Below, in pieces: positions 1-62,964 of a stretch of DNA of 64,000 bases. This stretch comes from an uncultured Planctomycetia bacterium. Lineage in GTDB: Bacteria; Omnitrophota; Gorgyraeia; 1-14-0-20-64-10. The stretch is taken from the NCBI GenBank assembly GCA_964373805.1, contig CAYJWF010000002.1, forward strand, positions 13,861-77,860, written 5' to 3'. Below the pieces are notes generated by a model. It ran no database searches. It saw nothing but the letters and a program-made list of their open reading frames with translations, and was not told the origin of the DNA. Position 1 is the first letter of the stretch. Every line of letters starts with the position of its first letter. Made by a program: the position numbers and the translations under genes.

Positions 1-655
1 GACGCCGGATACGCTCGCAGCGCGATGTCGAAAATTCCGCGGTCGGTGGATGGAAAACACAGGATGCGTTGGGTTCTGCGCCTTGTTGCCCCGGCACGTG
101 AGGAATCGAGTGGGTTACTTTGACGAGACCCTTCAGCCGATGTATTTTGAGGATGCCGACTACTCCCTTCGAATCCAAAACGCCGGTTTTCTCTGCGGGA
201 TCGCCCAAGGGGCCTACGTCTACCATCACGGCGGCGCTACCCTTCGGCACGATGGCTTACGGGGCAAGCGTTTTCAGGAGAATGAGGACCGCTTCTTTAA
301 GAAGTGGGCGAGACCCCGACCTCTGCGGATTGCCTGGATTCTTCCCCCTTCAGGTGAGGTGGACTCCCCCGAAGAAGCCAGGGAACGGATCCGTTCCCTG
401 GCCAATCAGGGACATAAGATCTGGGTCTTCTTGACCTCGAAGAATCGTCCTCTCGTGCCGGACCATCTGCAAGTCGTTCCGGTCCTGCTTCCCCGACTCG
501 GCTTTTCTCTTTTTGCGCGCTGGAAGATCCTCACCAGGAAGAAAAAGTACCACCAGATCCTTCATGGGGCGGCTGGGGCTGAAGGAAGCCCCACCACGGC
601 CCTCAGGCCGGCGGCTGTGGGCCGACGGGGATTCGAACCCCGCTCACAAGATTAA
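1..655 (+). CDS. Glycosyltransferase family 2, C-terminal portion (5' end outside window; 3' end uncertain, ORF runs into opposite-strand tRNA)
   Basis: Translation contains GT2 C-terminal signature (GCVGFCALLPRHV...FDETL...FEDADYSLRIQNAGF...YHHGGAT) resembling the ED-x-D...YH(K)GG region of family-2 glycosyltransferases; tail after ~residue 150 is low-complexity and overlaps tRNA-Lys. Confidence 0.45.
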   Translation, partial: TPDTLAARCRKFRGRWMENTGCVGFCALLPRHVRNRVGYFDETLQPMYFEDADYSLRIQNAGFLCGIAQGAYVYHHGGATLRHDGLRGKRFQENEDRFFKKWARPRPLRIAWILPPSGEVDSPEEARERIRSLANQGHKIWVFLTSKNRPLVPDHLQVVPVLLPRLGFSLFARWKILTRKKKYHQILHGAAGAEGSPTTALRPAAVGRRGFEPRSQD

Positions 656-689
656 AAGTCTCGTGCTCTTCCTACTGAGCTATCGGCCC
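618..689 (-). tRNA. tRNA-Lys (anticodon UUU)
   Basis: Reverse complement GGGCCGATAGCTCAGTAGG...GACTTTTAATC...GGTTCGAATCCCCGTCGGCCCA folds as cloverleaf: 7-bp acceptor, D arm AGCTCAGTAGGAAGAGC, anticodon loop CU-UUU-AA, T arm GGGGTTCGAATCCCC. Confidence 0.8.
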
Positions 690-690
690 G
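671..690. repeat. 20-bp direct repeat CCTACTGAGCTATCGGCCCG, left copy (inside 5' end of tRNA-Lys); putative att site
   Basis: Identical 20-mer recurs at 2987..3006. Confidence 0.6.
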
Positions 691-783
691 TCCCGCCATT
701 TTAACGGATTTTTCTCTTCGTTGCTAACCTTTGATGCTGTTCTGAGTTACTGCCGAGGTGTCTTGTTGTTGTTTGATGCTGTT

Positions 784-1060
784 TTAGGCTGTTGCGGAGT
801 GATTTGTTAGCGCTACGTTAGCAGGGACCAGGGAACCAAAAACCAAGTCGTCAAGCCTCCGTCCCATCTCTCCCTGTGCATCCGGCAACAGGTGCCCGTA
901 GACGTTAAGGGTGGTGGCCACCGAAGCGTGGCCAAGCTGATTCTGAATGAATTTTACGTTCTCCCCCTGGGCGATCAATAGCGCAGAGAAGGTGTGCGCA
1001 GGTCGTGGAATCGGATCCGACGTAATCCCGCCATCGCACCGGAGAACTTGCGATAATCAC
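784..1060 (-). pseudogene. Tyrosine recombinase (phage integrase) C-terminal remnant, frameshifted and N-terminally truncated
   Basis: Frame 1 (784..978) encodes IAQGENVKFIQNQLGHASVATTLNVYGHL (integrase box II with catalytic Tyr); adjacent frame (975..~1040) encodes GLRRIRFHDLRTPS (HxLR box). The two are consecutive but in different frames; no N-terminal/core-binding domain present. Confidence 0.55.
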
Positions 1061-1086
1061 CCTTATCGCAAGTAATCTCTGAAACC

Positions 1087-1776
1087 TTAAGCCGCCTTCT
1101 GGAAAGCGTGCTTGGTCCTTGTACCCAACGGAAATACCCTGAGGGAGACGTGGTATCCCAAAACCCACACGATCTTCTGAATGGTCGATAGGTTGCTGAA
1201 ATCCCCCTCCTCAATCTTGGAAATGTACTGCTGGGTTACACCGACTCTCTTTGCGAGCTGCCCCTGGTTCAGATGATGGTCGGCGCGGTATTTGACAATG
1301 AGGGAGGCAACCTTGGCCTTTTCCTCCTCCAACTCAAGCAGCTCCCGGAAGCGGGGGTCCTTGCTCTTCTCCCTGAAATGCTCGTCTACGCTCTTTAATC
1401 GGACTCTCATGGTCTTTCCCTCCGATGGCGATAATTTTGAGCTTAGATAAAGACGCCTACGGTCAGCCGCTAACTCGATCTCGTTCCTCGGCGCCTTTTG
1501 GGTCTTTTTCTTGAAAGCATTCGTAAAAATCACCTTGTCCCCATCGAAGAAGTACAGCACACGGAAATCCGAATCCCTCCCTGAGAACCGGAGCTCAAAA
1601 ATCCCACTTCCTAAACTCTTGGCGTGCGGCTCCATCAGCCTCGGGCCGAGGCTCTCCAAGATGGAGCGTTTGTAGGCGAACTTACGCTGAGCCACTTGGT
1701 CTATGCCGTCAATGAACCCCTCCACAGGGTAACGGCCCTGCTCGGTCCCAAAGTATGAGCAATGGTATGTGGTCAA
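1087..1776 (-). CDS. RelE/ParE-superfamily toxin (Gp49/HigB-like) fused in-frame to XRE-family HTH antitoxin (HigA-like)
   Basis: N-terminal 124 aa carry the Gp49-like motif GSGIFELRFSGRDSDFRVLYFF...VIFTNAFKKKTQKAPRNEIELA; C-terminal part (from internal Met at 1410, preceded by GGAGGG) has HTH LNQGQLAKRVGVTQQYISKIEEG. No stop codon separates toxin and antitoxin. Confidence 0.6.
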   Translation of the reverse strand: MTTYHCSYFGTEQGRYPVEGFIDGIDQVAQRKFAYKRSILESLGPRLMEPHAKSLGSGIFELRFSGRDSDFRVLYFFDGDKVIFTNAFKKKTQKAPRNEIELAADRRRLYLSSKLSPSEGKTMRVRLKSVDEHFREKSKDPRFRELLELEEEKAKVASLIVKYRADHHLNQGQLAKRVGVTQQYISKIEEGDFSNLSTIQKIVWVLGYHVSLRVFPLGTRTKHAFQKAA

Positions 1777-2131
1777 CCTTTTCTCATCCTCTTTTAAGTA
1801 TACAACCGAAATGTTGTAACTTCAAGGGTAAAATGCTCACCCTGTCAGCCGGATGGTATCGGTCGCATTGTCCTCTAGGTTCTCATAGCCCCGGAAGTAC
1901 CACAATTGCCCGCATTTGGCGGGGCGAGAGCTCCAAAATTACCGTCTCGCCGAAGTAATTCCCCACCTCTCTTTCTCGTCGGAAGCACTTACCAAATCGC
2001 TGTTTGGCAAAGGTAAGTACCTTACCCTCGCGGCATGCACCGTATGGGGAAAAGCATTTCCATTCGAACCAAAAGGGACCGAGGAGTCTCCAATTCAGTC
2101 CCGTTTTGGACGATTCCGACCTGATCCGAGC

Positions 2132-2401
2132 TCATGTGGCGATCGGAACCCGCTCCTGGTGGTACTTCTCCACCGCCTTCGTGACGTAGGCCATTGGGTT
2201 CTTCACCCCGTTGGCCGCCACGACCTTATCAACCAAGCGCTGGAAATCGCTGGCTAGAAGCTCTGGCCCGGGCCGATTGCCTTTGAAGCCCATCGGGAAC
2301 TGCGTCAGGATGGGAGACGGGTCGGCCTGCATCTTGGCTTCCAGTCGACGGAGGGAGGCATTGATCTTGTCGGCTTCCGGTCCGTCCAAGCGATCTTTCA
2401 A
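2132..2401 (-). CDS. Hypothetical small protein inside the tRNA-Lys islet
   Basis: 89-aa ORF, no recognisable motif; only open frame of size in the 1.8-2.9 kb islet interior. Confidence 0.2.
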   Translation of the reverse strand: MKDRLDGPEADKINASLRRLEAKMQADPSPILTQFPMGFKGNRPGPELLASDFQRLVDKVVAANGVKNPMAYVTKAVEKYHQERVPIAT

Positions 2402-2986
2402 CAGGTCGTCCTGCCTTTCCGTATTCCCGTCAGAAGGACGGATAGGACGGTTAGGTATGGAAGGGACGGACGGACTGGAAGGGCATGGATTAGCAGGGTT
2501 CCTGGCAGGAATGCCGTCAGCATTGCTACCAGCATTGCTATCAGCATCCGCTGATTTCTCGGGGAGCTTCCCAGACTACAGGATCCTGAGGGTAAATCAT
2601 AACCCCGCCCGAGGCCTTGCGGCATGTCGAGCGGGGAGCAATTAAAATCATCAATGCTTGGTCCTGCCTAAAGTATACCCGAGTCGGGGGCTTTCAACAA
2701 GGGAATTCTGTGTCCTAGATAGGTTTCGCGGGGGAGGGGGGCGTAGCCAGAAAAAGATCCTAACACGCTCGCTGGCACTGGCTCCCACCGATCTATAAGT
2801 TACAGTAAGAGGGTACCGGTTAGATCCAACAGGGTACGGGTGGTTGCCATGAATCTCCCCTAGGGTTATATAGCCCCACTTTGAGGCCAAAAAGGGACCT
2901 GGCGGAGAATCTTGTTAGCAGGGTGTTAGCGGGAAAGGAATTGCTAAAATACAACTATCTGGCATCCTTAAGGTTATGGGGGGTAA

Positions 2987-3006
2987 CCTACTGAGCTATC
3001 GGCCCG
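2987..3006. repeat. 20-bp direct repeat, right copy (orphan 5' tRNA-Lys fragment); putative att site
   Basis: CCTACTGAGCTATCGGCCCG identical to 671..690; flanks differ. Confidence 0.6.
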
Positions 3007-3117
3007 AGAAGCGAGAGCGGATACTAACACGATTCATGCAAGTTGATCCGTTCACCCTGAGCAAAGTCGAAGGGTGAACGGGATAGGACACAGAAGTTAA
3101 CACGTTTGTATTAGGCT

Positions 3118-3705
3118 CTAAACGACTTTGAGTTCCGCCTCTTTGGCGGCGAGCAGTTCTTCGACCTTAGCCTGATAGCGGTCGGTGAGTTTCTGAAGTT
3201 GATCCAATCCCTTAAACTTCTCGTCCTCGGGGATCGCCTTATCCTTGAAAAGCCTCTCGATGGCCTCCTTGGCGCCGTGGCGGATCGTTCGAAGGGAGAT
3301 CCGTCCCTCCTCGGCTTGGCCGTGGACCAATTTGGTCAACTCCTCCCGCCTTTCCGTCGATAAAGGAGGAATCGAAACCCGCAAGACCTTCCCATCGTTC
3401 AAGGGAGTAAGCCCCAGACTGGATTTTAAAATCGCCTTCTCCATCTCCGGTAGAATCTTCAAATCCCACGGCTGAACGATGAGAAGCTGGGGATCAGGAC
3501 AGTGGATCGAGGCCAACTGCTTAAGCGGCGTAGGCGTCCCGTAGTACTCGACCCGAACTCCCTCCACCAAGGCCGGGGTGGCTCGTCCGGTGCGAACGCT
3601 CGAGAATTCCCGGATCACCGCTTCCAATGCCCTTTGCATCTTGGCTTCGGTTTCTTTTAAAACCGTTGGGACATTGATGACGATCGGCTTCGATTCGGTT
3701 GACAT
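3118..3705 (-). CDS. frr: Ribosome recycling factor
   Basis: 195 aa; VRTGRATPALVEGVRVEYYGTPTPLKQLASI... typical RRF; synteny frr-pyrH-tsf-rpsB. Confidence 0.9.
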   Translation of the reverse strand: MSTESKPIVINVPTVLKETEAKMQRALEAVIREFSSVRTGRATPALVEGVRVEYYGTPTPLKQLASIHCPDPQLLIVQPWDLKILPEMEKAILKSSLGLTPLNDGKVLRVSIPPLSTERREELTKLVHGQAEEGRISLRTIRHGAKEAIERLFKDKAIPEDEKFKGLDQLQKLTDRYQAKVEELLAAKEAELKVV

Positions 3706-5071: not shown

Positions 5072-6016
5072 TTATTCCTCTTTCCCTTTAACCTTGGGGT
5101 CAGCCTTAGGTTTGGCCACCCGCTTCTTCTTAGGGATAACCGGCCCCGTCTCCTCCACCTTCAAGACCTCCTCAGGAACAACGATCTGCTCAACCACTTC
5201 GTCCCCTACGGGAAGCCCCTCCACGGGAGGAATCGCCGTCTCCACCGGCGCCGCCTCCGGGGACTCTTCTGGTGCAGGAATCGGATCCACTGGACTCTCC
5301 GCCTCCGCGGCCGGCGGCGCCAGACCCGCCCGGTAAACTTGGACCCCTTCCAAGATCGCGTCGGCTAAAAGAGAGGTGACGAGCTGGATGGAGCGGATCG
5401 CGTCGTCGTTGCCGGGGATCACATGGGCAAAGGGATCCGGATCGCTGTTCGTGTCCACCAAACCGACGATCGGGATCCCCAATCGGCTCGCCTCCTTGAC
5501 GGCCGTTTCTTCCCGCTTGGCGTCGATCACGTAGAGGGCCTTCGGGAGATGATCCATCTCGATGATTCCGGTTAAGGCCTTCTCCAATTGGGCCAATTTC
5601 TTCTCTTTTCGGGAAGCCTCCCGCTTCTTCAGGCGGTCCAAGGTCCCATCCTGGCTCCACATGCGCAGGGTCTTCAGCCGCTCCACCGACTTGCGGATCG
5701 TTTGAAAGTTGGTCAAGAGCCCTCCCAGCCAGCGCAGGTTCACGTAAAACTGCCCGCAGCGGGTAGCCTCTCGCGCGATGATCTCCTGCCCTTGACGTTT
5801 GGTTCCCACGAAAAGGATTGCCCCTCCCTGGGTGGCCACGGAACGGAGGAACTCGCGCGCCCCGGCGAGGGCGGCGTTCGTCTTCTCGAGATCCAAGATG
5901 TAAATCCCGTTCTTCTGGCCAAAGATGAACCGCTTCATCTTGGGGTTCCAACGGCGGGTCTGGTGCCCAAAATGGACCCCGGCTTCCAGCAGATCCTTAA
6001 TCAATGGTTCGACCAT
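5072..6016 (-). CDS. rpsB: 30S ribosomal protein S2 with ~85-aa Pro/Glu/Ala-rich C-terminal extension
   Basis: MVEPLIKDLLEAGVHFGHQTRRWNPKM... canonical S2; tail AEAESPVDPIPAPEESPEAAPVETAIPPVEG...KKKRVAKPKADPKVKGKEE. Confidence 0.9.
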   Translation of the reverse strand: MVEPLIKDLLEAGVHFGHQTRRWNPKMKRFIFGQKNGIYILDLEKTNAALAGAREFLRSVATQGGAILFVGTKRQGQEIIAREATRCGQFYVNLRWLGGLLTNFQTIRKSVERLKTLRMWSQDGTLDRLKKREASRKEKKLAQLEKALTGIIEMDHLPKALYVIDAKREETAVKEASRLGIPIVGLVDTNSDPDPFAHVIPGNDDAIRSIQLVTSLLADAILEGVQVYRAGLAPPAAEAESPVDPIPAPEESPEAAPVETAIPPVEGLPVGDEVVEQIVVPEEVLKVEETGPVIPKKKRVAKPKADPKVKGKEE

Positions 6017-23045: not shown

Positions 23046-26000
23046 CTATCCCAATCCGTCCGGGGTGGGATCGGCGCCGGGATTCGGATACGGCGGGACC
23101 GGCGGTGGGCCGCCTTTGAATAGGTGGCTCACCAAACGGAGAGCATCCGTGACATCGATCCATCCGTTATCATCGACATCGCAGGGATCTAAGGAAGGGA
23201 CCTTCTGCCCCCGGTACAGATAAAGCAGGATCGTCACCACATCGGAGATGTCCACCCGACCATCCCCATTGGCATCGCCGCGGATAAACGACGGTTGGGC
23301 AGTCACTGTAACCGTTACTTCTTCGGTATCGCTGAAGTCGCTCGGATCCATGACCCGGAAGAAGAAGGTGTTGGTGCCCACCTGGTCTGCCCCCGGCATC
23401 CATCGGAGAATTTTCGTCAACGTACCGGGCTCGGAACGGACCGTTTCCAAGCTTGCCCCTCTAGGTAGTGGGGAAGGACGTGTCGCCAACACCAATGGAT
23501 CTCCATCCGGATCGGTGGCGGAAATGGGGAATTGGAGCGTCTCCCCAACACGAGCCGTTCTAGAACCGATCGGCTCTAGAACGGGTGAACGACTAGAAGG
23601 CCCGAACTCAGACACGTAGACCTGTCCCGTCAAAGTCATCCGGCTACTCACACCTATCCAGGCCACTCGATTACCGGAAAGGGAAGGCGCTGCATTAATC
23701 TCAAACAACGAAGAGATAACCCGGTGCGTCTCCCCTGTCGTCAAATCCTGGAGGAACGTAAGAGGAGGGATTCGGAATTGACCCCAAAAATCTTCCCAGA
23801 CCACCTGATTCCCTGCAACATCCGGACGGATCTGGGTAGCCGGGTGAGAGGTAAGCTGCCGTTCCCTCCCAGTTCGCAAGTCGTAGAGAAAAAGATCAGC
23901 GGGATCAGGATCAAGCGCATCCTGTTCCCGGTGATCCTCGTAGATGATCCAGTCACCCCAGATCACTGGTCTAACCTGGTCAGACGGATGGTCGGTAATC
24001 CGACGTTCCGTATCGGTAGACAGATCGTAGAGGTAAACGTCGACGTTTCCGCCTTCCGCATGAGAATAAACGATTCGGTCGCCGGACACCCCAACCTGAG
24101 GCCGCGGGTTTGCGAAGCCTGGATCCTCAAAGACAGGTTTCTGCAGACGCTCCCTGAACGTGGTTAAATCGTAGACCTCTAGAATGTGATCGACTGTCAC
24201 ATAAACGAGCCAATGACCAGACATAACAGGAGGCGAATCAAAGGGTAGATTCCCTGCGATTCCTCCCTGATTCACGATGCGCTCCTGCTTGGTGTTGAGG
24301 TTGAATAGATGAATCCTGCTTTGCTGGCCTAACCAAACAATCCAATCTCGCCAGATGGTTGGAGGCGATAACCAAGTGAGATCGGAGGAGATTGACCGCT
24401 TTGTGTCGGTAGGTAGGTCATAGAGATAAAGATGGTTCGAGGTGGGGTCTCTATCCCCTGTGGTTTCTTCCCCCCAAACGATCCGGTCTCCTGAGATCGA
24501 AGGCCCCCACTTCTGTTGGGGGCCGTCCGTAAGCCGTCTGGGGGTAACCCATTCCAAGTAGTACTGCGCTACCTCTTGGAACCGTTGTCCACTTGATGTC
24601 GTAACTGAAAGGAGAACCAAGCTAGGGCCATCCGGTAGATCTCCGATCAGCCAATTTCCCAACACCCCATCCACCACGGGGGTAAACACCGGGCCCCCCA
24701 TCGATCGCCACGGTCCTACGGGGATATCGGTCTGATAGAGCAACTCATACTGCTGAAACCCGGGTCCTGCCGCTGTTCCGGTAACCATTACGGAGCGATC
24801 CCGTCGGCTGAGGATCGCCTTATCTTGCGGGCTGGTGAGGTATACCTGTGGGACCGAATCGATCGTCAGGGCCCGAGCAGCGTTAACGCGTCCAAATCCG
24901 GTCTCCCAATCAAAGCCTGGGGTCCCTACATCATCCGCAGAAATCTGCAATACCCGTCGAACCTCTTCATTGGAAAACTCGGGATGCCTGGACAAGACCA
25001 ACGCGCACACACCGGCCACATGGGGAGCCGCCATGCTGGTCCCTCGAGCCCTGTAATAGGATCCCCCTACCACCATCCTGCCCGCAAAGGCTGGACCACA
25101 ACTTTCCCGATAAATATCGGTTCCCATAGCGCGGAGGGACAGAATCGATGGGGTCACTTCCGAACAACCACCTCCTGACTCACCCCCCGGAGCTGCTACA
25201 TCGATCTCTGCTCCTAGGTTAGAGAAACTGCTCCTCTGATCCAAGTGGTCCAGGGATGCCACCGAGATGACCTCGGATGCGTTCTGGGGACTGAAGGCAG
25301 CTACATCGTCCCGACTATTTCCACCCGCAAATACCAATACCAAGCCGTTGGCGTAGGCCAGACGTATAGCTTCCATAACGAGCGGATTCTCTGGGCACCG
25401 ACCCATACATCCCCAACTGTTGTTGATCACATCCGCTACCCCGTGGTTCACGGGGTAGCGGATACCCTGTGCCAGAACACTGGAAGTGGAGATGCCACGA
25501 TCATCTAGTACCTTAACCGGCATAACCTTTGCCCGGGGCGCCACCCCAACGACCCCGATCCCATTGTTAGCTACTGCAGCAATCGTACCGGCTACATGGG
25601 TCCCGTGTCCATTAAGGTCCATGGGATCCTTATCCCCGTAAATCACATCCCAACCAAACATGTGATCACCAATCTCATTCCATTCCACCTGCCTGTTGCC
25701 ATTAAGATCTACATCGTCCAGATCAACGACTCCATCCCCATTGCGATCCGGAACGATCCCAGGATCCACCCAGACGTTCTTCCAGATGTCCGGATGGTTA
25801 TAGTCCAAGCCGGTATCGACGACAGCCACCACGATCCCTTCCCCTTGGGAAATCTTCCAAGCTTCGTCGGCTTTGATCTTCTTTAATCCCCACAGATCCC
25901 CGTACTCTTGGCCCCAGGCCCCGGTTGACCAGACCCCATCTTGATCTGGATCGACATACGTATCGTTGGGAAGGGTATCCGGGAAGGCTTGGATCTTCAT

Positions 26001-26651
26001 AATGTAGTCTGGCTGAGCGTATTCTACTGCCGGATCATCTTGATAGGTACGCACCATCGATGGGATATCGGTCGATTCATCCACCTTAAGGAGATACGTC
26101 CCATCCAAAGAGGGAACCACCGCATCCTTCGGGGCACGCTTCTGCCGACGCTCTAAGCGGGCTATGAGTCCTTCCTGGCCTTTAATCCGGGAATCCAACT
26201 CCGCTTTCTCCTTCTCGATCCGAGTCTGGTATTCCTTGGATTCTGGGGAATCCTTATCCTTCCACCAGTACCAGCTCGGATGCTCCTGACCCTCCAGACC
26301 TGCTCGCTTCTTCTTTAACTCCTGCAACCGTTCCTGGGCGGTCGGCTCCTTCGGAAAAACCTCTGTCACCGAGCTCACACCAAATCGCTGATTCAACGGC
26401 TCGATCGCCGAAAGGTCGTACCCTTCCTTGACCTTGACGATGATCTGACCAGGGGCATAGGTAGGAGCTGTCGGCCTGCCCTCCTCTACTTCCTGATGGG
26501 AATCAGGTTCCCCCTCTACCCCGCCAAAGGCAGAAGGCTGACAAAGGATGAGGGAAAAAACCAAAGAAACGGCTAGGGCTGTGTGCTTATGGCCCATTGC
26601 CAAAATGCGATCCCCCTTTGTCGCCATGGTACTTCTATAAACCCGATTCAC
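23046..26651 (-). CDS. Secreted subtilisin-like serine protease (S8) with N-terminal I9 propeptide, beta-propeller, cadherin-like Ig domain and C-terminal dockerin-like repeat
   Basis: Catalytic triad motifs VAVVDTGLDYNHPD, HGTHVAGTIAA, GTSMAAPHVAG; repeated DRIVW/LYDL blades; C-terminal GDANGDGRVDISDVVTILLYLY...DVDDNGWIDVTDALRLVSHLF. Confidence 0.85.
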   Translation of the reverse strand: MNRVYRSTMATKGDRILAMGHKHTALAVSLVFSLILCQPSAFGGVEGEPDSHQEVEEGRPTAPTYAPGQIIVKVKEGYDLSAIEPLNQRFGVSSVTEVFPKEPTAQERLQELKKKRAGLEGQEHPSWYWWKDKDSPESKEYQTRIEKEKAELDSRIKGQEGLIARLERRQKRAPKDAVVPSLDGTYLLKVDESTDIPSMVRTYQDDPAVEYAQPDYIMKIQAFPDTLPNDTYVDPDQDGVWSTGAWGQEYGDLWGLKKIKADEAWKISQGEGIVVAVVDTGLDYNHPDIWKNVWVDPGIVPDRNGDGVVDLDDVDLNGNRQVEWNEIGDHMFGWDVIYGDKDPMDLNGHGTHVAGTIAAVANNGIGVVGVAPRAKVMPVKVLDDRGISTSSVLAQGIRYPVNHGVADVINNSWGCMGRCPENPLVMEAIRLAYANGLVLVFAGGNSRDDVAAFSPQNASEVISVASLDHLDQRSSFSNLGAEIDVAAPGGESGGGCSEVTPSILSLRAMGTDIYRESCGPAFAGRMVVGGSYYRARGTSMAAPHVAGVCALVLSRHPEFSNEEVRRVLQISADDVGTPGFDWETGFGRVNAARALTIDSVPQVYLTSPQDKAILSRRDRSVMVTGTAAGPGFQQYELLYQTDIPVGPWRSMGGPVFTPVVDGVLGNWLIGDLPDGPSLVLLSVTTSSGQRFQEVAQYYLEWVTPRRLTDGPQQKWGPSISGDRIVWGEETTGDRDPTSNHLYLYDLPTDTKRSISSDLTWLSPPTIWRDWIVWLGQQSRIHLFNLNTKQERIVNQGGIAGNLPFDSPPVMSGHWLVYVTVDHILEVYDLTTFRERLQKPVFEDPGFANPRPQVGVSGDRIVYSHAEGGNVDVYLYDLSTDTERRITDHPSDQVRPVIWGDWIIYEDHREQDALDPDPADLFLYDLRTGRERQLTSHPATQIRPDVAGNQVVWEDFWGQFRIPPLTFLQDLTTGETHRVISSLFEINAAPSLSGNRVAWIGVSSRMTLTGQVYVSEFGPSSRSPVLEPIGSRTARVGETLQFPISATDPDGDPLVLATRPSPLPRGASLETVRSEPGTLTKILRWMPGADQVGTNTFFFRVMDPSDFSDTEEVTVTVTAQPSFIRGDANGDGRVDISDVVTILLYLYRGQKVPSLDPCDVDDNGWIDVTDALRLVSHLFKGGPPPVPPYPNPGADPTPDGLG
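23059..23097 (-). repeat. 39-bp segment at 3' end of S8 protease gene (encodes PPYPNPGADPTPD), duplicated at 27881..27919
   Basis: 38/39 identical to 27881..27919. Confidence 0.7.
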
Positions 26652-26705
26652 CCGATTTTATTCCAGGATTATCCTTGAAAAGTGGCAGGTCGACTTTAGA
26701 CCCCT

Positions 26706-26939
26706 TTAACCCAAAAGCTGACGGAGATCTTTGGCTGTCAACTGCACACCGCGTAAGATGGCTCGGAGGGTTCCTGGTTTGATTGGCTTCGAACCGTGGA
26801 GGATAATCGTTGCCCGGCGGGATAGGTCTCCCTTATGTCTCATGAGCACGTGAGACCCTCGTTGACGGAGAACGATAAAACCGGCTTTCTCAAGAGCACG
26901 AACAACTCGCTGGCCAGGAACTTGTGGGAGGTCGCTCAC
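26706..26939 (-). CDS. hicA: HicA-family mRNA interferase toxin
   Basis: 77 aa; GFIVLRQRGSHVLMRHK...GTLRAILRG typical HicA. Confidence 0.7.
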   Translation of the reverse strand: MSDLPQVPGQRVVRALEKAGFIVLRQRGSHVLMRHKGDLSRRATIILHGSKPIKPGTLRAILRGVQLTAKDLRQLLG

Positions 26940-27175
26940 GCAGCGACACGAACCTCCCGCAGGAAGACATCGGACGATGGGATCGGTTGATGGTCTGCCT
27001 CTAATCCTCCCAGGTAGAGAACGATGGCCTCTTTAATGTTAGCAAGGGCTTCTTTCTCGGTTTCCCCTTGACTGGCACAGCCAGGAAGTGCCGGTACATA
27101 GACCGAAAAACCGCCTTCCGACTCTGTCTGAAAGACCACACCGAATCGCCGAATCACGGATTTCACCTCCTTCAT
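26936..27175 (-). CDS. hicB: HicB-family antitoxin
   Basis: 79 aa; FSVYVPALPGCASQGETEKEALANIKEAIVLYL (HicB/UPF0150 fold); overlaps hicA by 4 nt. Confidence 0.7.
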   Translation of the reverse strand: MKEVKSVIRRFGVVFQTESEGGFSVYVPALPGCASQGETEKEALANIKEAIVLYLGGLEADHQPIPSSDVFLREVRVAA

Positions 27176-27356
27176 TACAGTTTACCACAGACAAACCCAT
27201 CAGGAGGTCTGTTGACACAAAGATTGCCTCGGTCCCGCTTCGGCTAAAGCCTCGCGGTCCCTCGCAATGACTTAAAGGGGCTACAGCGAGTCGAGGAATT
27301 GGGTGCCTTTCGTTAAAGGACGGTGGACAAACTTCTCTAGGTTCCTGGAACCTTTT

Positions 27357-27530
27357 TTAGAATCCAACTCGCAAAGCGCTGGGCAGTCTCGCAGCACGCA
27401 TGGGCCTCCTCTGCTGAGGGCAATGCTCCAACTGCTGGATACCGTTCAATCGCCGAGCTGCTCGATGGGGATCCTGCTGCGCTTTCTGCAGCCACTCGGC
27501 AGGATAACCGGAAGGCTTACGACTTGGCAT
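27357..27530 (-). pseudogene. HEPN-domain toxin remnant (57 codons, truncated/frameshifted) downstream of MNT gene
   Basis: ATG overlapping MNT 3' end; encodes PAEWLQKAQQD...LNGIQQLEHCPQQRRPMRAARL resembling PF05168 HEPN N-terminus (AEWLxKAxxDL...FHAQQAAEKALKALL) then stops; a second frame continues with EEAHACCETAQRFASWILKK. Confidence 0.35.
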
Positions 27531-27843
27531 AGAGAACTTTACCGGACTGCAAAATATCCATCAGGAACTGGTCGCCTAAGGCCAGACGCCGGCTAAGTTC
27601 TTGAGGGGTCAGCACGATCGGATCAAAGGGGATACCTCGCCTTAAAGGCGAGACGAGCTGGCGGACGGTCGCCAACCGCTGATGAAACGTCTGCGGCGTC
27701 CGTTTGACGATCAAAAGGTCGATGTCGCTTTCAGCCTTTTGCCGACCCGTGGCAAACGAGCCAAACAGAACGATCCGTTCCGGCTGATAACGGGTCTTTA
27801 AAACCTCCCGAATGCGCTGTATCACTCGCTTGGACTTATTCAT
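27517..27843 (-). CDS. Minimal nucleotidyltransferase (MNT) antitoxin of HEPN/MNT module
   Basis: 108 aa; IVLFGSFATGRQKAESDIDLLIV (GS...DxD polymerase-beta-like NTase motif). Confidence 0.7.
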   Translation of the reverse strand: MNKSKRVIQRIREVLKTRYQPERIVLFGSFATGRQKAESDIDLLIVKRTPQTFHQRLATVRQLVSPLRRGIPFDPIVLTPQELSRRLALGDQFLMDILQSGKVLYAKS

Positions 27844-27880
27844 GCTACCTTCTATTTTACCACAAGCTTAATTGAGGTTA

Positions 27881-27919
27881 TCCGGCGTGGGATCGGCGCC
27901 GGGATTCGGATACGGCGGG
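27881..27919 (-). repeat. Orphan 3' fragment of a dockerin-type gene (…PPYPNPGADPTPDNLN*) duplicating the S8 protease 3' end
   Basis: 38/39 nt identity to 23059..23097; open only ~17 codons (TGA immediately upstream). Confidence 0.7.
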
Positions 27920-54333: not shown

Positions 54334-54513
54334 TTCCTCTTCGTTTCTCGATCACCTGAAGGTGATCGGTTCCAGGAAAATCCCGCCCTCGGGGGATCCC
54401 CCTAGGTTCTCGTCCAGGCTAAGCCAACTCTTCCTCTCCCGTGAAACTCCTATTCGTCGTTTCACGGGACTTTCCTGGGCCGGCCCCTACGGGGCCTCAA
54501 ATCTTAGAGGACG

Positions 54514-54584
54514 TTGCCCCGCTAGGACTCGAACCTAGATAACCAGACCCAAAATCTGGCGTCCTACCATTGGACGACAGGGCA
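54514..54584 (-). tRNA. tRNA-Gln (anticodon UUG)
   Basis: Reverse complement TGCCCTGTCGTCCAATGGTAGGACGCCAGATTTTGGGTCTGGTTATCTAGGTTCGAGTCCTAGCGGGGCAA folds as cloverleaf with anticodon loop UU-UUG-GG; followed by GC hairpins. Confidence 0.7.
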
Positions 54585-60590: not shown

Positions 60591-60613
60591 TCGTGTACGG
60601 TTTACCGTTTACC

Positions 60614-60703
60614 CTATTTCTTCTTATGCCGATCGCGCCGCAGCCGCTTCTTCCGCTTATGTTTGGCCATCTTCCTGCGGCGCTTTTTCCGTAAGTTGGG
60701 CAT
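60614..60703 (-). CDS. Candidate 29-aa highly basic peptide immediately downstream of hisG (TAG-ATG junction)
   Basis: MPNLRKKRRRKMAKHKRKKRLRRDRHKKK; 19 of 29 residues are Lys/Arg; no homology assignable from sequence alone. Confidence 0.2.
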   Translation of the reverse strand: MPNLRKKRRRKMAKHKRKKRLRRDRHKKK

Positions 60704-61582
60704 CTAGTAAATCACCTTATTCAAGGAGTATTCGATGATCCCCTCGGCCCCTGCCTTCTTAAGCTCCGGAACGAGGCTGCGCACCACCTTCTCGTCCAGG
60801 ACCGTCTCCACGGCAAACCAGCCGTTGGAGCTTAAGGGGGAAACCGTCGGCTTCTTGATGGCCGGCAGAACCTCCAGCACCTTCTTCAGACTCTTCTTGG
60901 AAACGTTCATCTTGAGTCCCACCTTATCCCGGGCGGCGATGGCCCCCTTCAACAGGGTGGCGATCGATTCCAATTTCTTTCGCTTGAACGGATCCTTCCA
61001 AGCCGCCTTGTTGGAGATGAGCTGGGTCGTCGAGGTGCAGATCGTATCGACGACCCGCAATTTATTCGCCCGCAAAGAGGCCCCGGTTTCGGTGAGCTCC
61101 ACAATGGCGTCCACGAGATCCGTTCCCACCTTGGCCTCGGTGGCGCCCCAGGAAAACTCTACCACGGCGTTGACCTTGTGAGACTTTAAGTACGACTTGG
61201 TGAGCGCCACCAATTCGGTGGCGATCCTTTTGCCCTCCAGATCCTTCGGCCTCTGGATCTTGGAATCCACCGGGACCGCTAAGACCCATCGAACCGGTTG
61301 GAACCCCTGCTTGGAATAACTCAGATCCGTCACCTTGACCACGTCGGAGCCGTTTTCCATGATCCAGTCGTTGCCGGTAATTCCTCCATCGAGGACTCCC
61401 GCCTCAACGTACCGAGACATCTCCTGGGCTCTTAACAGCACCACCTCCAGCTCTTCGTCATCGATGGAGGGGAAATACGACCGATCCGTAATATTCAAAT
61501 GAAAGCCGGCCTGCCGCAACAATTGAACGGTAGACTCCTGAAGGCTCCCTTTGGGCAGCCCTAATTTAAGCCTCATTCCCAC
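60704..61582 (-). CDS. hisG: ATP phosphoribosyltransferase (long form)
   Basis: 292 aa; [12 protein letters not shown]...GNDWIMENG...; C-terminal regulatory domain present. Confidence 0.85.
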
Positions 61583-61721
61583 CCTCCTCTAATAAAAAGG
61601 CCTCTTTGATCTGACGCTTGACCTTGGGCCTTCGGTAGACCCTCTTCGAAGGCTTCACCCGAGTGCGCGGATGAATCCGCCAGAAGCGACGGACCTTCAC
61701 GGTCCGTTTCCGTTTTGCCAT
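61566..61721 (-). CDS. Candidate 51-aa basic protein overlapping hisG start by 17 nt
   Basis: [51 protein letters not shown]; ribosomal-protein-like composition but no confident family match. Confidence 0.25.
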
Positions 61722-61790
61722 AAAACGGCTATTCTACGGGAAAGCTGCCTTTAAGTCAACTCAAAGAACGCTGCTTAAGGGCAGTGTGAA

Positions 61791-62834
61791 TTGATAACTA
61801 ATTTTAAAATTAATATGTCTACTAACCATAACAAAAAACCTTCCCCTTGCCTTCTCTTGGGCCTTATGGGTACAATAGGTTTTGTGAAGTGGATTCGAAA
61901 GCGAGTGGGGATCGTGGCGGGGGCCGCCATTGCAGGATTCCTCCTTTGGCTCGTGGGAACCGTGGTCTCCATCCAGACCACCCAGGCGGAGTCGGTGGGT
62001 CTTTTATTCGGCAAGAAGGTGCCTTTCAAGGAGTTCATGGAGGCGTCCCAAGCGGTCACCCATCAGGCGATCTTGACCCATGGAGACCGGTTCCAACAGG
62101 AAGTCACCAACGACCTCCTGGAAGCCCAAGCTTGGGAAAGATTGACCTACCTGGCCGAAGCCAAACGTCTTAAGATCCGAGTTTCCGACCAAGAGGTGGT
62201 CGAAGAGATCCAGAACCTCTTCCAGAGCAATGGTCAATTCGACCGAAAGGGGTACGAGACGGTGGTTCAATACCTGCTGGGAACCTCGCCTCGTGCCTTC
62301 GAGGAGGGGATCCGCGGGACCTTGACCATTCGGAAGCTGCTCGATCAAGCTCTCGAAAATCCCACCGTCACCGAGGAGGAATTGAAGAAAACCTTCCACG
62401 AGCGGGAAGACAAGATTCAGATCAGTTACCTGGTCCTTTCGCAAGAGCCGCTGGCTCGGGAGATCGCCGAAAGCGTGCGTCAAGATTGGGCGAGGATGAA
62501 GCCGATCGCCAAACAACTGGACGCCAAGATCCAACGGTTGGAATACTTCAAACGGACCGAGGATCTCCCGGAGTTGGGCTACGCCGGATCCACCTTTGGG
62601 CCGGCCTTCTCGCTTCAACCCGGGGAGGTGACCGGTCCTGTCTCCTCCCAAAAGGGGTGGCTGGTGGTCAAACTCGAGGACCAACGTCCGGCCGATGAGG
62701 AAAATCTGCCGGCGATGCGGGAAACTCTGGAAAAACAGATCACCAACCAGAAGCGGCTGATGGCCTATTTCAGCTGGTACTCCGACCTACGCAAGCGGGC
62801 CAACCTCAAGAAGAAGCTAGAGGCTAAGAGCTGA
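61791..62834 (+). CDS. SurA/PpiD-like periplasmic chaperone with parvulin-type PPIase domain (true start likely downstream of annotated Met)
   Basis: N-terminal TM (IVAGAAIAGFLLWLVGTVV), SurA_N-like helical domain, C-terminal parvulin-like segment GSTFGPAFSLQPGEVTGPVSSQKGWLVVKL. Confidence 0.6.
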   Translation: MITNFKINMSTNHNKKPSPCLLLGLMGTIGFVKWIRKRVGIVAGAAIAGFLLWLVGTVVSIQTTQAESVGLLFGKKVPFKEFMEASQAVTHQAILTHGDRFQQEVTNDLLEAQAWERLTYLAEAKRLKIRVSDQEVVEEIQNLFQSNGQFDRKGYETVVQYLLGTSPRAFEEGIRGTLTIRKLLDQALENPTVTEEELKKTFHEREDKIQISYLVLSQEPLAREIAESVRQDWARMKPIAKQLDAKIQRLEYFKRTEDLPELGYAGSTFGPAFSLQPGEVTGPVSSQKGWLVVKLEDQRPADEENLPAMRETLEKQITNQKRLMAYFSWYSDLRKRANLKKKLEAKS

Positions 62835-62964
62835 GCAGGGAAGAGGTAAGACGAAAAATAAAAATGTATTGATAAATCTCTGTAACGTATTGTATACTTT
62901 TTAGGGGGGAGGCCCCGCCTTTGGCGGGACATCCGCTGGCGCCGGCAAGAGCGCCAACGAGAAG

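Follow-up and report, generated by a model that had tools for sequence, protein, structure and literature searches.

How does an intact tRNA gene come to stand 2,296 bp away from an exact second copy of its own 5' end, with the remains of an integrase gene in between? This question is raised by the tRNA-Lys(UUU) locus near one end of a 64,000-nt stretch of contig CAYJWF010000002.1 (assembly GCA_964373805.1, positions 13,861 to 77,860), hereafter called the window, from an uncultured Planctomycetia bacterium assigned to the Omnitrophota in GTDB. The original prediction, made from the sequence alone, described the segment as an att-bounded island that has lost its integrase. The repeat, the integrase remnant, the base composition, a parallel occupied/empty pair of relatives and a pair of putative arm-type motifs all bear this description out, and we conclude that the segment 691-2986 is very probably what is left of a small integrative element, now decayed and non-autonomous, that was inserted in the 5' part of tRNA-Lys(UUU).

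Duplicated 5' end of tRNA-Lys and the integrase remnant

The tRNA-Lys(UUU) gene was recovered by Rfam with the predicted extent, 618-689, and by ARAGORN with one further base (Table 1). As the gene lies on the minus strand, its 5' end is at 689. The 20-mer CCTACTGAGCTATCGGCCCG was found at just two sites in the 64 kb, both on the same strand, with up to three mismatches tolerated (chance expectation, 0.02; two matches in 0 of 100 shuffles). On the strand of the tRNA its sequence is C + GGGCCGATAGCTCAGTAGG, one upstream base followed by tRNA nucleotides 1-19. The predicted recurrence at 2987-3006 was confirmed, and the first copy, formerly described as lying at the tRNA 5' end, was corrected to 671-690, one base past the tRNA. 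The 20-mer contains the acceptor 5' strand, U8-A9, the D-stem 5' strand and six of the eight D-loop bases, and terminates at G18G19; on either side the identity stops sharply without extension. No tRNA, Rfam family or credible open reading frame (ORF) overlapping the second copy was detected by ARAGORN, Rfam or ORF calls, in agreement with its description as an orphan. As 5' integration would produce, this stub of nucleotides 1-19 is situated upstream of the intact gene and in direct orientation to it. An intact tRNA gene plus a displaced end fragment in direct orientation is also the arrangement sought by the Islander algorithm, whose configuration filter admits a 5' fragment located upstream (PMC4383910), and the tyrosine integrase that Islander requires inside the island next to att is present here as a remnant only. 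By its content and by the island lying upstream, the repeat belongs to the 5'-end/D-loop sublocation.

The integrase remnant adjoins the intact tRNA-Lys and is co-directional with it. Its boxes lie in separate frames of the minus strand, RIRFHDLR in one and HTFSALLIAQGENVKFIQNQLGHASVATTLNVYGHL in the other, as had been predicted. The two frames share base 996 (tblastn 1055-996 and 996-787), and one nucleotide is missing between CGC (Arg) and CAC (His). The uncorrected ORF scored below the cut-off of Pfam PF00589 (19.8 vs 27.1 bits), and the frame-repaired 90-aa remnant matched the phrog_1 integrase with E=4e-21. In addition to the frameshift, an N-terminal truncation was observed: homology starts only at about 1055-1062, the N-terminal ~250-300 aa (two-thirds) are gone, and the break coincides with a perfect hairpin. 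Because the integrase is both truncated and frameshifted, the islet is non-autonomous.

No further integrase of this family was found within the 64-kb window. The search for relatives of the integrase, suggested along with the original prediction, returned proteins of PF00589 at most 74% identical to the remnant, and none of the nearest homologues adjoins tRNA-Lys. Many of these are short C-terminal fragments or split genes; as the protein search seems biased to short sequences, no biology was read into the short or split matches. Related integrases are often encoded by two adjacent ORFs, an N-part and a C-part of 82-144 aa (L033 5057-6249, L034 5312-6435, L038 5305-6249; L handles denote loci fetched for comparison), the split being a frameshift or an in-frame stop; these may represent pseudogenisation or an artefact of the biased search. 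An SSV-type split integrase, with attP inside the integrase gene (int), was considered for the window and rejected: the C-terminal end of the remnant, not the break, faces the att site, and no integrase-like ORF lies beside the other 20-mer.

The base composition of the islet is also distinct. Its GC content is 53.1%, against a mean of 57.7+-1.7% for the other windows of 2,296 nt, of which 0 of 586 were lower; the predicted GC deviation is thus found as the lowest value of all 2.3-kb windows. The runner-up low-GC stretches (53.5-54.2%) are located at ~24900-27900 and ~60600-62900.

Table 1. Coordinates of the features at the tRNA-Lys locus, numbered from the first base of the window
Feature	Position	Strand	Basis or remark
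tRNA-Lys(UUU), intact	617..689	-	ARAGORN; Rfam RF00005 at 618-689, 69.9 bits
att core copy 1 (attR), 5' end of intact tRNA	671..690	-	exact 20-mer
P arm of former attP, integrase stop to core	691..830	-	~130 nt; alignment to L166
Promoter-like TTAGCA-18-TAAAAT in P arm	698..727	-	consensus scan
Tyrosine integrase remnant, ~85 C-terminal residues with HDLRH, LGH and catalytic Y	784..1062	-	three-frame translation
TTGTTAGC-N5-GTTAGC, P-arm copy, putative arm-type site	804..822	+	antisense to int
Hairpin, perfect 11-bp stem	1046..1073		inverted repeat; junction of toxin-antitoxin cassette and integrase break, after stop of 229-aa ORF
Fused Gp49/DUF891 (HigB-like) + HTH_3 (HigA-like) ORF, 229 aa	1087..1776	-	Pfam
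ORFan, 89 aa; cargo or remnant	2132..2401	-	ORF call
TTGTTAGC-N5-GTTAGC, P'-arm copy, putative arm-type site	2912..2930	+	56 nt inside orphan core
att core copy 2 (attL), orphan tRNA-Lys 5' fragment	2987..3006	-	exact 20-mer; tRNA nt 1-19 = 2987-3005
Native flank between frr and orphan	3007..3117	-	terminator-like frr hairpin at 3048-3081 (inverted repeat)

Bipartite motif and the P arm

Each end of the islet was found to carry one copy of a bipartite motif, TTGTTAGC-N5-GTTAGC, which matched nowhere else in the 64 kb at up to two mismatches (expected number of matches, 0.12). Both copies are on the same strand, antisense to int, 114 and 56 nt inward of the respective 20-mers. An inverted tRNA-like fragment at 2908-2924, overlapping the second copy, was at noise level and was not considered real. 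Among 1.5 Mb of fetched loci, the motif in the form TTGYTAGC-N5-GYTAGC was concentrated in the loci of the nearest integrase homologues, through which a group of tRNA-Met islands (L033-L037) had been retrieved. In L034 a full tRNA-Met is followed after 65 nt by the motif, with the integrase 3.6 kb further on, and this copy of the motif agrees with the window copy at 2912-2930 in 18 of 19 positions. An orphan tRNA-Met 3' fragment, spanning the anticodon loop to the 3' end, is bracketed in L033 and L035-L037 by two copies that are again antisense to int; the gaps in L035 are 119 and 70 nt, compared with 114 and 56 nt in the window, and the strand relation to int is identical. In L166 the motif comes immediately after the stop of an integrase fragment with 70% identity. 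Rfam gave no matches for the tRNA fragments of L166, L033 and L035, as expected for fragments. Since the same motif flanks the tRNA-Met 3'-fragment att cores beside the nearest integrase homologues, it is probably the arm-type site of this integrase subfamily. The putative arm-type sites would then be located on both sides of the core, as in a heterobivalent attP.

The likeness of the islet to the tRNA-Met islands goes beyond the motif. The integrases belong to the same subfamily, with catalytic C-termini ~64-66% identical; the core has a motif copy on either side, at comparable distances; int points the same way as the tRNA; the block of identity extends from a loop of the tRNA to one of its ends; and the cargo is mostly of toxin-antitoxin or defence type. 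Read in the orientation of int, the window gives stub core, 56 nt, motif, cargo, int, motif, 114 nt, and core with tRNA, while a tRNA-Met island gives tRNA core, 65-70 nt, motif, cargo, int, further sequence, motif, 119 nt, and stub core. The two layouts match, the difference being which part of the tRNA is mimicked by the core. The tRNA-Met islands carry the tRNA 3' part, insert downstream and keep the host promoter, and in viral contigs with related integrases int likewise faces the 3' end of a tRNA; in contrast, the element in the window carries the 5' part, lies upstream and displaces the promoter. Sublocation classes within tRNA genes, including an anticodon-loop class of canonical tyrosine-integrase islands, are said to have been distinguished by Williams in 2002.

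Between the integrase stop and the core lies the P arm, with imperfect 28-nt direct repeats at 730-757 and 772-799. It was found to be collinear with 535-760 of L166, an unrelated contig in which the arm sits behind the 70%-identical integrase fragment (local score 53 vs 17.1+-2.5 for shuffles), the collinearity extending from the motif to ...GAAAAATCCGTAAAATG. In L166 the arm is followed not by tRNA-Lys but by a tRNA 3'-like fragment (T-loop GGTTCGACTCC; by inspection, T-arm GCAGG-TTCGACT-CCTGC plus acceptor strand). The promoter-like sequence TTAGCA-18-TAAAAT falls at the tRNA-proximal, distal end of the arm, within the part collinear with L166, and its -10 hexamer ends 8 nt ahead of nucleotide 1 of tRNA-Lys. 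Because this arm is linked to the integrase in L166 without tRNA-Lys, the P arm with its promoter-like site is element-borne and travels with the integrase rather than with the host tRNA. The element probably supplied the DNA that now occupies the promoter position of tRNA-Lys.

Relatives of the locus, insertion model and rival explanations

The closest genomes available were uncultured Planctomycetia metagenome-assembled genomes (MAGs) with frr ~70% identical, and metagenome contigs reached 70-82%. The islet was absent from all relatives with 70-82% identical frr; the same 2.3 kb with intact genes, which would have told against an island, was thus seen in no relative. In two more distant loci, L004 (Omnitrophota) and L079, tRNA-Lys follows frr after 77-100 nt on the same strand, and in the window the orphan follows frr after 112 nt, again on the same strand; the stub therefore marks the ancestral position of tRNA-Lys. 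In an anchored alignment (p ~0.005), the last 25 nt of the flank at 3007-3117 resemble the DNA natively upstream of tRNA-Lys in L048.

An occupied/empty pair was identified in L027 and L003, which are 96.1% identical over 5.57 kb and conspecific. The order in L027 is tRNA-Lys, a 1,245-bp islet with PhdYefM/ParE, a 19-nt stub corresponding to tRNA nucleotides 1-19, and a hairpin-rich flank, while in L003 an intact tRNA-Lys abuts directly the flank that trails the orphan of L027 (34/40 identical). The repeat boundary in L027 is the same as in the window, at nucleotides 19/20 in the D-loop. L027 hence shows that 5' insertion at the exact position of the window islet occurs in this clade. In the comparison for an empty tRNA-Lys site suggested along with the original prediction, relatives were found to lack the islet, and a near-isogenic empty counterpart was seen only for this parallel islet.

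A ~55-nt double-hairpin unit (GATCCCCTTAGGGGATC + GCCCACCTnnnGGTGGGC) stands immediately 5' of tRNA-Lys or of the stub at L046 1457-1618, L049 1895-1979, L027 9665-9733 and L003 5797-5836, in tandem copies in L046 and L049. In front of the unit stands GGGCCGAT, which equals tRNA-Lys nucleotides 1-8. The unit is ~85% conserved among distant relatives; it looks like either a small insertion that duplicated 8 bp at the 5' end of the tRNA or the scar of an older element. Short tRNA-Lys 3'-end fragments, such as TCGGCTCCTTGTCGGCCCA (89% identical to the tRNA-Lys 3' end), were found 130-160 nt downstream of the intact gene (L002 15516-15534; L003 ~5588-5605), which suggests that canonical 3'-targeting elements used the same tRNA.

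We propose the following course of events. A heterobivalent tyrosine integrase would have inserted the element into the 5' part of tRNA-Lys when the gene lay ~110 nt downstream of frr. The attP would have been ordered as int 3' end, ~130-nt P arm with one putative arm site (TTGTTAGC-N5-GTTAGC) and the promoter-like TTAGCA-18-TAAAAT, 20-bp core identical to C + tRNA nucleotides 1-19, and P' arm with the second putative arm site. Recombination within the core would have left the native upstream flank on a dead 19-nt stub (attL, 2987-3006) and rebuilt the complete tRNA at the far end (attR, 671-690), with nucleotides 1-19 supplied by the element and nucleotides 20-73 native. By analogy with the loop-centred sublocations of the family, the crossover was probably in the D-loop, flanked by the D-stem. 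As everything upstream of the rebuilt tRNA-Lys now comes from the element, transcription of the gene presumably starts at the P-arm promoter or reads through from int. Later, the N-terminal two-thirds of the integrase would have been lost at the boundary of the Gp49-HTH cassette and the 1-nt frameshift acquired. The model predicts ...GTTAGTATCCGCTCTCGCTTCTCGGGCCGATAGCTCAGTAGGAAGAGCACGAG... at the attB junction and ...AATCCGTTAAAATGGCGGGACGGGCCGATAGCTCAGTAGGTTACCCCCCATAACC... at the circular attP junction, and an intact element should read full-length integrase, arm motif, P arm, CGGGCCGATAGCTCAGTAGG. With both cores and both arm motifs intact, excision in trans by a related integrase is conceivable. 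In having two intact att cores and no working integrase, the islet resembles CIMEs, the cis-mobilisable, integrase-less, att-flanked remnants of integrative elements, but its mobilisation in trans is conjectural and the 64-kb window holds no helper integrase of the family.

Several observations weigh against this model. No strain of the window organism with an empty site was found: 4 of 4 sequencing runs were occupied, and when frr and the 89-aa ORF of the islet were looked up as exact proteins, only the same organism was returned, 99.97-100% identical and always occupied. An intact element with the window core was likewise not found among the integrase relatives, and viral, phage and plasmid collections yielded none: blastn of the islet gave no match in the phage and plasmid collections, and scans of viral contigs with the integrase remnant, the -10 box plus tRNA 5' end, the arm motif and the predicted attP junction gave nothing or generic integrases at most 57% identical. 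Neither in their interiors nor in their arms are the islets of the window and L027 significantly similar, and L027 is without the motif; the L027 case therefore establishes that the process takes place at this site, but not that the element was the same. Compared with L027, the block of tRNA, islet and stub has the opposite orientation between frr and the glycosyltransferase gene, which are convergent (window 1-3120, L027 7749-10879), and the locus has therefore been rearranged in ways that the model leaves unexplained. The promoter-like site matches the consensus at only 9 of 12 positions, and such sites are not enriched in the region (3 vs 1.5 expected). Finally, the ~40-nt promoter-like flank also precedes tRNA-Lys in L046 (p<0.001), L002 (p=0.001) and L042 (p=0.004), all free of orphans, and these loci would require the extra assumption of older insertions that lost their stubs. 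As for gene orientation, tRNA-Lys and frr converge in L003, L027 and L048, and are co-directional in the window, L042, L046, L002, L004 and L079.

Three other explanations were considered. The shared flank of L046, L002 and L042 is what would be expected if 691-730 were the ancestral host promoter of tRNA-Lys and the islet and stub had arrived upstream by another route, the tRNA never having been a recombination target. We consider this improbable, because the ~130-nt arm whose distal end is formed by the flank is collinear with L166 and stands there before a tRNA 3' fragment, because the flank of the orphan is the one similar to the native flank of L048, and because this explanation offers no mechanism for a 20-bp copy of the tRNA 5' end at the far end of the islet. 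A chance only slightly better, and still small, is given to the stub being the leftover of a second, tandem tRNA-Lys destroyed by an unrelated insertion or deletion, with the 20-mers as paralogous 5' ends. tRNA 5' ends are indeed conserved among relatives, the extra upstream C could agree by chance (1 in 4), and the locus is clearly rearrangement-prone; however, the stub ends at nucleotides 19/20 exactly as in L027, for which L003, with only one tRNA, documents a clean insertion, two tRNA-Lys genes at the locus were seen in no relative, and both ends of the islet bear the arm motif of the integrase family at att-like distances. Least of all do we credit a target-site duplication made by a transposase, or a chance repeat. 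Relatives do contain insertions with a duplication of the first 8 nt of the tRNA (L046), but ORF, domain and inverted-repeat scans detected neither a transposase nor terminal inverted repeats in the islet, chance is countered by the low expectation for the 20-mer pair, and the integrase remnant and arm sites are present. The length of 20 bp also exceeds that of usual transposase target duplications.

Integration into the tRNA 5' part therefore stands as our preferred reading, and under it the simplest account of L046, L042 and L002 is that they represent older insertions of the same kind whose stubs were lost. A bolder extension is that one integrase/attP architecture switched from a loop-to-3'-end target to the mirror-image 5'-end-to-D-loop target, and that its P arm, as a domesticated attP arm, came to serve as the host promoter of tRNA-Lys in several lineages of the planctomycete clade (window, L042, L046 and L002), even those from which the remainder of the element is gone. 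The argument for it is that 5'-inserting elements must bring a promoter for the rebuilt tRNA; we hold this extension to be possible, and rather doubtful.

Cargo of the islet, neighbouring genes and implications

The HigB/HigA-like module of the original prediction was recovered in its domains, Gp49 at 3e-21 (residues 21-107) and HTH_3 at 8.6e-9 (residues 162-209) in Pfam, but not as separate genes. Like HigB/HigA type II modules (Gp49/DUF891 plus XRE-HTH), it has the Gp49/RelE-fold toxin domain ahead of the XRE-HTH domain, a promoter-like site upstream (1797-1825, promoter scan) and a location on a mobile islet; unlike them, it has both domains in a single 229-aa frame with no intervening stop, and contig L163 likewise calls a single gene. 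In its only close relative, P0121 (65-75% identical), toxin residues 1-54 are joined straight to the antitoxin by an in-frame deletion that removes the toxin core between two '..KS' sites. The ORF possibly belongs to a fused or degenerating toxin-antitoxin lineage. The DNA between the copies that had been called low-complexity was found to include the 89-aa ORFan and the second arm-site motif. For this ORFan there was no Pfam or NCBIfam match and one marginal PHROG match, and its sole database match was from the same organism. Apart from the toxin-antitoxin-like gene, no adaptive cargo is evident in the islet, which is a dead remnant.

Toxin-antitoxin or abortive-infection pairs also stand right after frr in relatives, namely MazF+RHH in L047 (3153-3762) and an unclassified pair of small ORFs in L046 (757-1361), and truncated C-terminal integrase fragments of the same subfamily are followed by NT/HEPN (L035-L037) or AbiEi/AbiEii (L167-L171). 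The survivors at the locus or beside truncated integrases thus recurrently include such genes: Gp49-HTH in the window, Phd/ParE in L027, MazF/RHH in L047, NT/HEPN and AbiEi/AbiEii. This recurrence would fit stabilisation by addiction.

On the other side of tRNA-Lys, the glycosyltransferase ORF (50-655, plus strand) remains stop-free until 655 and extends 39 nt into the tRNA gene, its final ~13 codons coming from the antisense strand of the tRNA 3' end. Contig L163 annotates an identical 353-aa glycosyltransferase gene, while the L027 homologue terminates within the GGGCCGAT-hairpin unit instead. The window also contains a tRNA-Gln at 54513-54584.

Almost every tRNA-targeting element known uses the 3' portion of the gene and spares the host promoter. 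Insertion in the 5' part severs the tRNA from its promoter, and expression then depends on DNA brought by the element. The use of the tRNA 5' end, which the original prediction had rightly called unusual, has a precedent: 5'/D-loop integration upstream of tRNA-Arg arg2A has been described in Klebsiella pneumoniae for integrase clade I.d (bioRxiv 10.1101/2020.11.02.365908). Those islands and the window islet alike lie upstream of the tRNA and involve a tyrosine integrase; the latter differs in being a 2.3-kb decayed remnant in a Planctomycetota-like MAG, at tRNA Lys-UUU and probably from another integrase lineage. Insertion in the tRNA 5' part is thus rare yet already described, and the islet is a further case, a second and phylogenetically remote example of the D-loop/5' sublocation. 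It ties this mode to an integrase subfamily that otherwise uses the anticodon loop and 3' part with the same putative arm sites. Island finders that seek only 3' fragments would miss such islets. The locus also suggests that an element-borne arm can persist as the upstream region of a tRNA after the element has decayed, and paired att architectures of this kind could help to understand or re-engineer the site choice of integrases. The main interest of the locus lies in the mirror-image use of one att architecture and in an attP arm that is possibly the tRNA promoter region in several lineages.

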